Source of the DNA: a phage
Sequence record: PZ386970.1
DNA: 64,000 bases
Strand: one strand, 5' to 3'
Part shown: piece after piece, positions 10,377 through 39,892 of the stretch
Position numbering within the stretch: the first letter of the stretch is position 1
Layout: every line of letters begins with the position of its first letter
Program-made: the position numbers and the translations under genes
Notes under the pieces: generated by a model
What the model saw: the letters and a program-made list of their open reading frames with translations, nothing else
What the model was told of the DNA's origin: nothing
Databases searched by the model: none

Positions 10377-10847
10377 TTAATCATGTTTCCACACCCCATC
10401 GGTATTTGACCAAAGTCGCTGATTATCTGATCCTCGCCACAGCTTTTTGGTCGGAAGATTTTTCTCATACTTCCCATCAATAATAACATCAACATATTTA
10501 AGCATTTCTAGCTGTTTAATATCTTCAAACTTATATCCTGTCCACAACCAAATGCTTTTATTAGGATAAAGATTTTTTACTGTTTGAACAATGCAATGAA
10601 TAACATCTCGGTTATCAGGATAGAGAGGGTCACCTCCGGTTATAGTCAATCCTTCTATATAATCATTATTCAAACATTCAATTAATTGTTCTAGTGTTTC
10701 ACCAGTGAATGGAATACCATTTCTAGCATTCCATGTTGATTTATTATAACACCCTTCGCATTTATGCAAACACCCTGTAACGAAAAGAACGACCCTACAA
10801 CCAGGGCCATTCACAAAATCGCAAGGATAAAACCTATCATAATTCAT
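10377..10847 (-). CDS. nrdG: anaerobic ribonucleotide reductase activating protein NrdG
   Basis: 156 aa radical-SAM activase with CLHKCEGC (Cx3Cx2C) cluster motif; directly downstream of nrdD. Confidence 0.9.
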   Translation of the reverse strand: MNYDRFYPCDFVNGPGCRVVLFVTGCLHKCEGCYNKSTWNARNGIPFTGETLEQLIECLNNDYIEGLTITGGDPLYPDNRDVIHCIVQTVKNLYPNKSIWLWTGYKFEDIKQLEMLKYVDVIIDGKYEKNLPTKKLWRGSDNQRLWSNTDGVWKHD

Positions 10848-12120
10848 TGGTGTTTAACCCTATGCATGATTTCTTTATTTTTACCGAGATTAAATCCGCG
10901 TTCGTTCGGATTTCCCAAATAGCCGCATGTTCTTCTTATGGTGTTCATCTTTTTAGGATCAGTTTCTCCACAAACTGAACAAACAAATCCGTTTTCAGTA
11001 GGAGTCATTTCATGAGTACTTCCGCATGTAAAACATTTATCCACTGGCATATTAACACCAAAATAATCTAAATGTTGTGCAGCATAATCCCAGACAGCCT
11101 CAAGACCCTTTAAATTGTTTTTCATATCTGGAAGTTCAACATAAGAAATGTGACCACCTGTCGCAATGAAATGATATGGCGCTTCACGAGAAATCTTTTC
11201 AAATGGAGTAATATTTTCTTCTACTGAAACATGGAAACTGTTAGTGTACCAGCCTTTATCGGTAACATCTTTTACACTTCCATATTTTTCTGTGTCTAGT
11301 TTACAGAAACGATAACAAAGGTTTTCAGCAGGAGTAGAATACAAACTAAAAGCAAATCCAGTTCTTTCAGTCCACTGTTTAAGATGAGCATTCATTTTAG
11401 TTAAAATTTCTTGCCCAATATCACGACCAACAAGAATATTCAATTCATGAATACCAATGTATCCTAAAGACACTGAACTTCTACCATTTTTAAATAACTC
11501 AATTATGTCATCATCAGGTTTAAGACGAACCCCGAATGCACCTTCTTGGTAAAGAATAGGAGCAACAGTCGCTTTAACTCCTTTTAAGGAACTAATTCTA
11601 CACATCAAAGCTTCAAAACATAAATCCATTCGTTCATTGAATAATTCAACAAATTTCTGTTCATTGAACTGTGTTCCAATATAAGAATCTAATGCGATAC
11701 GAGGAAGATTCAGTGTTACAACACCGAGATTATTACGTCCATCAAGAATTTCATTACCAGTCGAATCTTTCCATACACTCAAGAAACTACGGCAGCCCAT
11801 TGGAGAAACAGGAACAGATGAACCGGTAATAGCTTTATTATTCTTAACAGAAATAATGTCAGGATACATTCTTTTGCTTGCACATTCTAACGCAAGTTGT
11901 TTAATATCATAGTTCGGATCATCTTTATAAAGATTAACACCCTCTTCAACAAACATAACAAGTTTAGGAAAAATAGGAGTTATCCCATCACGACCAAGAC
12001 CTTTAATACGATTTTTCAGAATTGCTTTCTGAATCATTCGTTCAGTCCAGTCAGTTCCCGTACCAAATGTAATTGTTACAAAAGGCGTTTGTCCATTAGA
12101 GCTGAAAAGTGTATTTACTT
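10844..12120 (-). CDS. nrdD: anaerobic ribonucleotide reductase NrdD, exon 2 (5' boundary approximate)
   Basis: Glycyl radical motif RTCGYLG and C-terminal zinc ribbon CFTCGS...CSVCGE; reading frame continues from exon 1 across a roughly 1 kb intron; splice acceptor not mapped. Confidence 0.8.
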
Positions 12121-13164
12121 CATCATTATATTCAGCATGAGTCGCAAATTCATGCCCGTTTATATGAAACAACAAAATTTGGATAGTCCATAGATATGCA
12201 ACGTTCTTTTATAGTGCTAGGATGAAAATTTAGCGCTTTAGCTGCTTCTATATAAGACGTATACTTAATACCGTCAACAACCACATATTCAGGAACTTTA
12301 TGAATAGTAGTCTTAATACTCAAAACAAGAGGATGAGTTTCGACTTCACTTTCAGTGCAATTTAAATATTCCGCTGCTTTTTTAAAACTTCTAAAAGTTT
12401 TATTTTTAAGCTTTATCGATACTTGTTTTTTACTTTTTCGACTATTGATATTATTTTGCACATGTTCCTTAGATCTTCCATTTTTAGCATAATATTCAGC
12501 TACAGAAGATTTTATATTGTTTTTATGAGATTTGGATAACACTTTACCCTTATGAGCATCTCTTAATTTTTGAATATGTTCTTCAGTATCCGGATGTTTA
12601 TAAAACTTTTTACCGCCTATGGATTTATTTAAACATTTTTTGCTATAAAAATATTTACGTATGACCTCTTCTTCATGTTTTAATGCATCTTTATAACTAT
12701 CAAATGTTTTTAAAATTATCCATTTAGTAGGTGTATCAGTTTTTAAGCGTTCATTTATATACTTAGATGACGTTGTGTAAGTTTTCCAGTTTGTGGGCTT
12801 GTTTTTAATTGTTCTAAATTTTTTATAACCGATATAAATGTCGCCATTAGAAAACTTAACTAAGTATGTAAATGCGTCTTTATCTTTTATTTTAGTACAA
12901 CGTCTTTTTATCCATTTCATTGTTTCACCTCGTATTCATAAGATAATCTTATTTATACAAGATGACTGCTGCATGTCGCCATGCAGATTAGACTATATCT
13001 TCATCTTTCGATGCCGGCCGTTTCGAATAGCATTAGCTTCTATTCTACACCGTTACATTCATCACGGTTAGTCGTTAGGCATTTAGTTCAAAAGAACATT
13101 TAGCACGGGATTGTCTTACTAGAGAGGTTCCCCGTTTAGACCGGTTTTACATGAGCCTGAATTA
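12121..13164 (-). other. group I intron in nrdD (boundaries approximate)
   Basis: Exon 1 frame hits a stop at 13162-13164; GC-rich structured non-coding sequence at 12925-13160; embedded endonuclease ORF; same arrangement as the T4 nrdD intron. Confidence 0.6.
12150..12920 (-). mobile_element. intron-encoded GIY-YIG homing endonuclease
   Basis: 256 aa ORF inside the nrdD intron; TYL-x7-IYIGY arrangement near the N-terminus and basic repeats (KGKVLSKSHKNNIKSS, KNGRSKEH) resembling NUMOD3 modules. Confidence 0.65.
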
Positions 13165-13707
13165 AATTAACTCATACGCCTGAAATGCATCGTATACATC
13201 TTTTTCTGTTTTAGATTGAGCATAATTCAACGCATCAGCGATTTGCCATTTTTCTGCATCCTCAATATGTTTTGCATAGGTGCGTTTAACATAAGGAGAA
13301 AGTACTTTATCTACATTTGCAAAAGTCGTTCCGCCGTATTGATGGGAAGCAACCTGTGCAGTAATTTGTGCCATAATTGCAGTAGCAACGCCAATTGATT
13401 TAGGAGTTTCAATCTGTGCATTACCTAGCTTAAATCCATTTTCAAGCATTCCTTTTAAATCTACTAAACAGCAATTAGTAAAAGGAAGAGCAGGGGAATA
13501 ATCAATATCGTGCACGTGAATAATTCCGCTTTCATGCGCTTTCATAATAAAAGACGGGACCATATTTTTGGCAATGTGTTTAGACACAATACCAGCCATA
13601 AGGTCCCGTTGAGTTGGAAAAACACGAGAATCTTTATTAGCATTCTCGTTCAAAAGATCTTTATTAGTTTTATGAATTAATCCTTCAATTTCTTTTTCAA
13701 TTTTCAT
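13165..13707 (-). CDS. nrdD: anaerobic ribonucleotide reductase NrdD, exon 1
   Basis: 181 aa N-terminal portion of class III RNR; terminates at the intron boundary. Confidence 0.8.
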
Positions 13708-27034: not shown

Positions 27035-27244
27035 TTATTCTTGGAATGGTGTGAGTTTTCCAGCTATCGAACAAATTTCTACCATCGCAGGATAAAACTC
27101 TTTCACTTGTTCAAGGCGCTGGACAGCGTACCGCATTTCGCCTTCTTCAAGACAAGCCGCTTGGTCATCGAGCAAATATTTGTGGTAACCTGTACAGGCT
27201 TCACTAATGATACGTTGGAATTCTTGCAAACTTTCAATTTTCAC
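27035..27244 (-). CDS. hypothetical protein (vs.3 position)
   Basis: 69 aa ORF. Confidence 0.35.
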   Translation of the reverse strand: MKIESLQEFQRIISEACTGYHKYLLDDQAACLEEGEMRYAVQRLEQVKEFYPAMVEICSIAGKLTPFQE

Positions 27245-27510
27245 TAGTATTTTTCCTCAGGTCGAAATACTGCACGACATGCCCACATGCTGGCTTCTTT
27301 TAGATGTTGCTTAGCATACTTAAGAGCCTGCACTGCATCCATATCTTCTTTGGTTTGTTGCTCTGTTTCATTTTCTTTCAAGATATATGCTTCTTCAATC
27401 AGAGCATCAAACAACAATCCAAGACGGACTTCGGCATCTTTAATAGCGTTCACTTTACCGATTTTATCATCGGTATGCGGCTTGTAGCCTTTGATGTCTT
27501 CAATCGACAT
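27244..27510 (-). CDS. hypothetical protein at the T4 vs.4 position (candidate Acb2-like)
   Basis: About 89 aa helical protein starting MSIEDIKGYK...; called only by counting positions between regB and the IP cluster. Confidence 0.35.
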   Translation of the reverse strand: MSIEDIKGYKPHTDDKIGKVNAIKDAEVRLGLLFDALIEEAYILKENETEQQTKEDMDAVQALKYAKQHLKEASMWACRAVFRPEEKY

Positions 27511-27724
27511 AAGGAATTTCCTCATCGGTGGCAAGGTCATATTCGACCAATTGGATAGGCTCGTTAATACCATATCCACGTACAGTGATATCAGTTGTCG
27601 GATAGTTTCCAGTAATATCACCCGTTCTAAATGATTCAATGAATGATTGCTCGCCTGAGCAACTAAACCAGGCGGCAAAACATTTTAAAACATCTTCAGA
27701 CCCTTCTATAATCAATTTAGCCAT
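27500..27724 (-). CDS. hypothetical acidic protein (vs.5 position)
   Basis: 74 aa ORF. Confidence 0.35.
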   Translation of the reverse strand: MAKLIIEGSEDVLKCFAAWFSCSGEQSFIESFRTGDITGNYPTTDITVRGYGINEPIQLVEYDLATDEEIPYVD

Positions 27725-28086
27725 TATAGACTCTCAGTAAAGGTACGAGCGATAACGTCGCGCTGCTGTTCCGGAGTCAGAGAGTTAAAGCGAACTGCAT
27801 AACCGGATACACGGATGGTCAGCTGCGGATATTTTTCTGGATGCTTAACTGCATCTTCCAGAGTTTCACGACGCAGAACGTTAACGTTCAGGTGTTGTCC
27901 ACCTTCAATTTTAACTTTAGGTTGATGTTCAATTTCAATTTCACGGGCATTCAAACCGTAGAAAATTTCTGGGTCTACAATAGCGTCTTCTTTAAAAGTC
28001 TTAGAGACAATAATCCGGGCTTGAGTACCGTCTTCAAAATAAATAGTGCCTTTATGTGCACCTTCAAGAATTTGATATGCTTTCAT
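27724..28086 (-). CDS. autonomous glycyl radical cofactor GrcA/YfiD-like protein
   Basis: 120 aa; C-terminal [25 protein letters not shown] is the glycyl-radical signature of PFL/GrcA. Confidence 0.65.
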
Positions 28087-28092
28087 ATAACC

Positions 28093-28401
28093 TCAATTAG
28101 AAAATAAATTTATCCAAGTTTTTTCTTTAATCAAAAATGGGTCGGAATTAAACGCCATTAAACTTTGAGTGATTAATCCCTTAAATGGTCCATCAATAAA
28201 TTCCATTTTGAAATGCGGAATACTAGTCATCAACCGTGCATTAGGAGCAGTACAAAGAACCTGCTGCCCTGCGAACGGACCTTTAGTCAAACGATATCGT
28301 TTAGGTTTAAAATGGTAAATCTCGTAATTTTCTACAAGAGCCCTTTTATTGCATACTGGGCTGTTATAACAATATTCAAAAACTTCAATAGTGGTCATCA
28401 T
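28093..28401 (-). CDS. hypothetical protein (vs.7 position)
   Basis: 102 aa ORF. Confidence 0.4.
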   Translation of the reverse strand: MMTTIEVFEYCYNSPVCNKRALVENYEIYHFKPKRYRLTKGPFAGQQVLCTAPNARLMTSIPHFKMEFIDGPFKGLITQSLMAFNSDPFLIKEKTWINLFSN

Positions 28402-29115: not shown

Positions 29116-29694
29116 TTAATTACCACGGGCTGCATTAGCAACGGCGTAAGCGTACTGAACATTAGCGTCTTTAAATGTACCTTTAGAGGTATCTATTTCC
29201 GCCTTAAAGCCGCCTTTAGCCATTACATCGGCAAATTCTTTACGGAAAGCCATTGCGTCAAGACCTTTCCATGATGATTTATGCTTGGCAAATTCAAGAC
29301 CAGCGTAGTTGACAGCCTTAGCTAATTTATTATCAATAACCCATTTACCTGCTTTAGGCACAAACTTCGGACCTTTTTGTTTAGAGAACAGTTTTAAATT
29401 CCAACGACGAAGGTCACTGTCGGCTTTAACAAAAGCTGCATCTAAGTTACTAGCAACAACATCTTCAATATGAGCAAATTTAAGTCCGTCAACTTCAATA
29501 TTTAGATCGTTACGCCAGCGTAGTCCTTCCCAAGCGAAGGCTTTAAAATCAGAAGCTTTTGTGGCTAGATATCGTTCAAGTGGAGCAGTTTTAGGGTCAA
29601 AGCCGTTTCCGCCACGATAATTCCACTCGTCCTTATTAATGCCTTGGACTTTTCCTGCAAAGGCCTCGGCGATAAATTCTTTATACGTTTTCAT
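29116..29694 (-). CDS. internal protein (IPIII-like) with capsid-targeting N-terminus
   Basis: 192 aa starting MKTYKEFIAE, the T4 internal-protein capsid-targeting/protease-cleavage sequence. Confidence 0.6.
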   Translation of the reverse strand: MKTYKEFIAEAFAGKVQGINKDEWNYRGGNGFDPKTAPLERYLATKASDFKAFAWEGLRWRNDLNIEVDGLKFAHIEDVVASNLDAAFVKADSDLRRWNLKLFSKQKGPKFVPKAGKWVIDNKLAKAVNYAGLEFAKHKSSWKGLDAMAFRKEFADVMAKGGFKAEIDTSKGTFKDANVQYAYAVANAARGN

Positions 29695-29720: not shown

Positions 29721-30035
29721 TTATTCTTTAGGGAAGTTTTTAGAGTATGCATCATAAAGTTTATTACCAATACGGCGGAAGACTTTAGCTGCAAAACGGT
29801 TTTCAGGGTTTTTAATCATGATTTGCATCATGTAAGTTCCTGCATCCGAAAGAGCTTCTTCATAGTACCCATTAATTTCTTTAAGAGTCCTACGTTTACC
29901 GCCAGGACCGTCAACAGTAATTTTCCATTTACCTGTAGAAGTGCGGCTCGGTGGCTCAACTTGTTCAATCCAAATATAACCACCTTCAACGCGTTGGTTG
30001 GCGGATTCTGCAATAAATTCTTTATACGTTTTCAT
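29721..30035 (-). CDS. internal protein-like (capsid-targeting N-terminus)
   Basis: 104 aa starting MKTYKEFIAE. Confidence 0.55.
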   Translation of the reverse strand: MKTYKEFIAESANQRVEGGYIWIEQVEPPSRTSTGKWKITVDGPGGKRRTLKEINGYYEEALSDAGTYMMQIMIKNPENRFAAKVFRRIGNKLYDAYSKNFPKE

Positions 30036-39737: not shown

Positions 39738-39814
<77 letters not shown>

Positions 39815-39817
39815 GAT

Positions 39818-39892
39818 TGGTGACCCTGGCTGGTTTCGATCCAGCTACCTATCAGTTATGAGCTGACAGCTCTCCCATTGAGCTACAGGGCC
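39818..39892 (-). tRNA. tRNA with CAU anticodon (Met or Ile2-type)
   Basis: Hand-folded cloverleaf on the minus strand: acceptor GGCCCUG/CAGGGUC, D-stem GCUC/GAGC, anticodon loop CUCAUAA, T-arm GCUGG-AUCGAAA-CCAGC, encoded CCA; 3 nt from the tRNA-Arg 5' end. Confidence 0.7.

Follow-up and report, generated by a model that had tools for sequence, protein, structure and literature searches.

Spare-part proteins that repair glycyl-radical enzymes are best described in Escherichia coli and phage T4, where YfiD (GrcA) and Y06I (the product of T4 gene vs.6), each of roughly 14 kDa, fill this role (Andorfer et al. 2021, PMC8683613). These two are the only spare-part proteins that have been validated (PMC8683613). 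As that article relates the work of Wagner et al. 2001, the activase PFL-AE installs a glycyl radical on YfiD and on T4 Y06I, and the radical-bearing proteins then form a complex with oxygen-cleaved pyruvate formate-lyase (PFL) and restore its function. Residues 1-60 of YfiD are disordered and aid both binding to cleaved PFL and activation, and residues 61-127 share the fold of PFL residues 693-759 (PMC8683613). In a comparison of T4-like genomes, vs.6 was among the few T4 ORFs of unknown function kept in all genomes compared, and a role in nucleotide metabolism was guessed for it from a shared Pfam domain (Nolan et al. 2006).

Here we analyzed a 64-kb stretch of phage DNA (record PZ386970.1; the whole stretch is called the window below) that carries a 120-codon ORF on its minus strand (Table 1). 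This ORF is very probably the ortholog of T4 vs.6 (Y06I) and encodes a stand-alone GrcA/YfiD-type glycyl-radical cofactor. A preliminary description of this DNA, made from its letters alone, had proposed a GrcA/YfiD-like gene here with a glycyl-radical signature at the C-terminus of its product, and both proposals held up. The ORF is intact, running from an ATG at 28084-28086 to a TAA at 27724-27726, and the quoted signature is present, with G95 as the radical glycine in the context RVSGYAV. The protein matched Pfam Gly_radical (E=2e-18, 67.3 bits, above the cutoff of 22.2) and the NCBIfam GrcA model TIGR04365 (5.8e-47, residues 18-120 aligned to positions 23-126 of the 126-position model). 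The TIGR04365 score of 159.1 bits falls below the curated equivalog cutoff of 170 owing to the divergence of the N-terminal half; in size and in homology along its length, the protein nevertheless belongs with GrcA/YfiD (TIGR04365, IPR011140). A PDB search returned E. coli GrcA first (6OWR, E=2e-42, residues 21-120 against 27-127) and E. coli PFL second (3e-26); the remaining glycyl-radical enzymes did no better than 4.5e-12, which places the C-terminal domain nearer to PFL than to the other enzymes of this class. The identity of the gene is already known: phage GrcA was characterized in 2001 and is routinely annotated, and GenBank carries the label "autonomous glycyl radical cofactor" on this gene in hundreds of phages. 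Homologs were found in 1,589 phage records that include T4-like, T5-like and jumbo phages, and 1,535 records from several phage families hold an intact full-length copy; from one IMG/VR relative (L120), no vs.6 ORF was obtained.

Table 1. Positions of vs.6, its parts and signals, and the nrdD-nrdG region in the window
Feature	Position	Strand	Basis or remark
vs.6 ortholog (Y06I), 120-aa autonomous glycyl-radical cofactor, very probably a GrcA-type spare part	27724..28086	minus	ORF; Pfam, NCBIfam and PDB matches
Shine-Dalgarno GAGG, 4 nt 5' of the vs.6 ATG	28091..28094	minus	sequence reading
TAATG, vs.6 stop overlapping the start of the downstream vs.5-like ORF	27722..27726	minus	sequence reading
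Radical glycine codon G95, motif RVSGYAV	27802..27804	minus	aligns with E. coli GrcA G102 and PflB G734
Phage-type N-terminal half, vs.6 codons 1-59	27909..28086	minus	homologous to, and far diverged from, E. coli GrcA residues 1-60
Host-identical tract covering gene nt 179-353 and coding for the structured glycyl-radical domain	27734..27908	minus	alignment to E. coli grcA
NrdG	10377..10847	minus	
nrdD exon 2	10844..12175	minus	
GIY-YIG/NUMOD1 homing-endonuclease ORF between the nrdD exons	12150..12920	minus	
Group I intron core between the nrdD exons	12969..13205	minus	Rfam RF00028, 72.3 bits
nrdD exon 1	about 13162..13707	minus	

The surrounding genome is that of a T-even phage. Across the 2-kb region that contains vs.6, identity to Escherichia phage moskry (genus Mosigvirus) is 97.5%, and in that phage the same ORF is annotated as an autonomous glycyl radical cofactor. 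T4 vs.6 lies at NC_000866 63557-63919 and is likewise annotated GrcA, and the gene order regB, vs.3, vs.4, vs.5, vs.6, vs.7, vs.8 is common to the window, T4 and phage moskry. The window gene thus groups with T4 vs.6 both by identity and by its position between regB and vs.8. The T4 protein also has 120 residues, of which 112 (93%) are the same; of the eight changes, six lie in the N-terminal half and the other two are K57T and R73H. Residue 73 is His in T4 but Arg in the window phage and E. coli. The two phages belong to different genera, and genes neighboring vs.6 in the window are only 72-84% identical to their T4 counterparts. Within this run of small minus-strand phage genes, the overlap of the vs.6 stop with the start of the vs.5-like ORF suggests translational coupling. 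A scan for promoters and terminators around vs.6 returned 4 promoter-like sites against 6.7 expected in shuffled sequence; such sites are no more common than in shuffled sequence, so the scan says nothing on vs.6 expression.

The vs.6 protein is homologous to E. coli GrcA (YfiD, 6OWR) over nearly its full length, although it is 7 residues shorter and its N-terminal half shares only 25-37% of residues. Alignment to E. coli GrcA, which the preliminary description had put forward as a check, showed the last 60 residues to be 100% identical and the radical-glycine context to be preserved (G95 against G102). The loci differ as well: host grcA sits at ung-grcA, whereas the phage gene stands among small phage genes. 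The C-terminal glycyl-radical domain of PflB (residues 696-759), which is the piece that a spare part replaces, is 76.6% identical to the last 64 residues of the vs.6 protein, and a 22-residue core is the same in both. Unlike PflB, the phage protein is a stand-alone polypeptide of 13-14 kDa with neither the 10-stranded barrel nor the catalytic cysteines.

At the DNA level, this division into two halves is sharp. Compared codon by codon, vs.6 and E. coli grcA share ~50% of nucleotides over the first 56 codons of vs.6 and 97.2% over the last 60, where all differences are synonymous. The switch is abrupt and falls at the codons for V/I-E-G-G-Q; the last three codons diverge again. Between these points (nt 179-353), only 2 differences from E. 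coli grcA were found, both synonymous, and they interrupt long perfect runs. In E. coli grcA numbering, the 5' breakpoint falls near codon 67, just past the first few codons of the structured half (YfiD 61-127, PMC8683613). At 95% identity or more, the tract has a match in every one of 5,426 complete E. coli genomes, and 27716..27908 is the sole megablast match to these genomes in the whole window. T4 vs.6 is a mosaic as well: its C-terminal part shares 98.3% of its nucleotides with E. coli grcA. The N-terminal half is conserved among the homologs of T4-like, T5-like and jumbo phages.

These features point to a recent host-to-phage gene conversion. GC3 rises from 0.22 in the N-terminal half to 0.40 in the tract, against 0.43 in E. 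coli, and the host-like value of the tract argues for transfer from host to phage. We rejected the opposite direction since E. coli grcA relates normally to its Citrobacter and Salmonella counterparts and the tract GC3 is host-like; identity of E. coli grcA to Citrobacter (92.8%) and to Salmonella (83.9%) is in both cases lower than its identity to the phage tract. Selection on the sequence itself fared no better. Bacteria whose peptide is identical or almost so differ more in their DNA, so selection at the protein level cannot explain the identity of the tract, and selection for identity at the codon level was rejected because bacteria with an identical protein differ at 13-28 synonymous codons. 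The gene would thus join an old N-terminal half of the phage lineage to a 3' half whose sequence homologous recombination has recently replaced with that of E. coli grcA. Photosynthesis genes of cyanophages (psbA) offer a precedent, as host and phage recombine within these genes and exchange mosaic segments with the host copy. Like psbA, vs.6 is a phage-carried metabolic gene with a segment of probable host origin; unlike psbA, which concerns another gene, host and phage family, vs.6 carries a single block of ~175 nt at a protein domain boundary. A literature search, with key older papers outside its scope, returned no account of the vs.6 mosaic or of grcA exchange between host and phage, and an earlier mention is possible. 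In a T-even phage with almost no host-like DNA, vs.6 makes the origin of a 175-nt E. coli-like tract testable.

What would such a protein do for the phage? The preliminary description had suggested that it repairs oxygen-cleaved host PFL, and because Y06I is reported to restore oxygen-cleaved PFL (Wagner et al. 2001, as presented in PMC8683613), this suggestion coincides with the published mechanism and is supported by it. By analogy with the T4 ortholog, oxygen would cut activated host PflB at its radical glycine, G734, and the vs.6 protein would bind the cleaved enzyme. Its C-terminal domain, equal to host GrcA residues 68-127, would then replace the lost glycyl-radical loop and C-terminal helix of PflB, the host activase PFL-AE (PflA) would place a new radical on G95, and conversion of pyruvate to acetyl-CoA and formate would resume in the infected cell. 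The activation and rescue steps are taken from what PMC8683613 reports for the T4 protein, which has His rather than Arg at residue 73. We infer that the phage would benefit because fermentative flow of carbon and energy would be kept up even though host gene expression stops after infection, and that the benefit would be felt during infection under fluctuating low oxygen (e.g., in the gut). The literature search found no phage for which an in vivo vs.6 phenotype has been described. The vs.6 locus makes it testable whether a phage gains from repairing host fermentation under fluctuating oxygen.

Since the N-terminal half aids binding to cleaved PFL and activation in E. coli, its divergence means that the affinity or target of the phage protein could differ from that of E. 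coli GrcA. Taken further, the vs.6 protein might manipulate host metabolism, with its phage-specific N-terminal half redirecting pyruvate flux; it could do so by titrating PFL-AE, by occupying PflB or TdcE, or by delivering a radical to full-length inactive PflB. That this half is so unlike the host's and yet is kept across distant phage families may reflect a phage-specific function, and in E. coli it governs binding and activation rather than catalysis (PMC8683613). We nevertheless consider manipulation improbable, as what is reported for the T4 ortholog is restored rather than inhibited PFL activity (in the account given in PMC8683613), and the catalytic half has stayed the same as in the host.

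Even less probable than manipulation, and rejected here, is a role for vs.6 as a spare part for the phage's own NrdD, in which it would replace an oxygen-cleaved radical domain and be activated by phage NrdG. The preliminary description, which had offered this as a hypothetical second role, was correct that the phage encodes both proteins: NrdG and NrdD, the latter in two exons, are present 15-17 kb from vs.6 in the same window. NrdD is a glycyl-radical enzyme, spare parts for glycyl-radical enzymes other than PFL are conceivable (PMC8683613), and the speculation of Nolan et al. 2006 on nucleotide metabolism leans the same way. However, BLASTP of the vs.6 protein against NrdD exon 2 of the window gave no significant alignment (best E=4, away from the radical site), and the radical loop of NrdD reads RTCGYLG after a Cys-rich stretch where vs.6 has RVSGYAV. 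The vs.6 protein thus does not carry an NrdD-like C-terminal domain, and the suggested service to NrdD was not supported. Being identical to GrcA and 76.6% identical to PflB, the vs.6 domain instead appears shaped for the PflB barrel. The nrdD gene itself is interrupted both in the window (10844..13707) and in T4, while nrdD of phage moskry is uninterrupted (1818 nt); the intron in the window was found in a local Rfam run and was missed by a whole-window run at the gathering threshold.

Least probable of all is that recombination left the host-like 3' half as a neutral passenger in a gene without selected function. The near-identity of the tract to host DNA and its GC3 (0.40 against 0.22) do fit recent acquisition. 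However, the last 60 codons differ from E. coli only synonymously, the reading frame is maintained, as is its overlap with the following gene, intact homologs are widespread (1,535 records, several families) and vs.6 is one of the few ORFs kept in all T4-like genomes compared (Nolan et al. 2006).

We return, then, to a PFL spare part whose radical half probably derives from the host, and to how widely and how recently that half was acquired. In the phage collection, 486 records match E. coli grcA at 95% identity or more, and, among the matches listed, all start at grcA nt 200. DNA identity between the window phage and T4 follows the same division: against 72-84% in neighboring genes, it is 89.8% in the N-terminal half of vs.6 (18 differences in 177 nt) and 96.8% in the C-terminal part (6 differences in 183 nt), and the two difference counts depart from each other (Fisher p = 0.01). 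Across eight T-even alleles, each difference from E. coli within nt 179-353 is private to one phage, and the consensus is the E. coli sequence, with no fixed difference between phages of the Mosigvirus type and those of the T4 (Tequatrovirus) type. Two IMG/VR relatives show zero differences from E. coli in this interval. The N-terminal half, in contrast, holds ~18 differences in every Mosigvirus-type/T4-type pair of the eight alleles. The absence of fixed clade differences in the tract, set against ~18 in the N-terminal half, shows that the tract was homogenized to the E. coli sequence after the two lineages diverged.

Two histories would produce this pattern. The radical half of vs.6 in T-even phages of E. 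coli may have been overwritten repeatedly by host grcA through homologous recombination during infection, a proposal to which we give somewhat less than even credence. Alternatively, a single recent capture followed by spread between phages accounts for the same data. If repeated overwriting is correct, the phage part would stay an exact copy of the host's while the phage retained its own N-terminal targeting half, and recurrent conversion of this kind would provide a clean case, in enterobacteria, of an auxiliary metabolic gene undergoing host-phage gene conversion.

Phages do not track their hosts in this way as a general rule. When phages of Klebsiella, Citrobacter, Kosakonia, Erwinia, Salmonella and Providencia, together with about 50 IMG/VR contigs, were compared with 81 bacterial grcA genes, near-identity to the host gene (96.7-98.9%) was confined to the E. 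coli Tequatrovirus/Mosigvirus group, and homologs from other phage clades were 70-87% identical to any sampled bacterial grcA; we therefore rejected general host tracking. In the reverse search, grcA of Klebsiella and Salmonella found no match of at least 95% in the phage collection, a weak result given that K. pneumoniae is absent from the bacterial sample.

Several individual homologs have features of their own. One IMG/VR contig (L122, IMGVR_UViG_2706794630_000006) encodes a 150-aa homolog with a different N-terminus, and the 180 nt at its C-terminal end are 91% identical to Yersinia grcA; this 3' tract may be a second, independent tract of host origin. GrcA homologs of two Klebsiella phages (L085 and L088) carry the Klebsiella/Salmonella-type motif LLDAVEH, and that of the related Citrobacter phage Margaery (L087) carries the E. 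coli/Citrobacter-type LEDAVKH. The DNA of all three is at most 81-87% identical to sampled bacterial grcA, and the motif pattern could reflect older host matching or convergence. A further set of IMG/VR contigs (L163-L172) holds 124-aa ORFs that start MHGRDQKGAVAS, with PflB-type residues MNREMLLDAMEHPE and a GC3 of 0.44-0.60. These look like the 3' ends of bacterial pflB/tdcE on short or prophage contigs rather than phage GrcA.

Elsewhere in the window, the vs.4-like ORF (27244..27510, minus strand), which lies two genes downstream from vs.6, matches Pfam Acb2_Tad1_hairpin at 4.4e-18, which identifies it, by sequence, as a putative anti-CBASS sponge homolog. Its longest frame extends to a TTG at 27678, and the annotated relative starts at an ATG that gives 88 aa. 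On the other side of vs.6, two adjacent minus-strand ORFs (29116..29694 and 29721..30035) both start MKTYKEFIAE, a beginning that we take to resemble the shared N-terminal capsid-targeting sequence of the T4 internal head proteins; a Pfam search of the first (29116..29694) gave no match. Two adjacent tRNA genes lie at 39741..39892 on the minus strand (Rfam RF00005, 71 and 59 bits).
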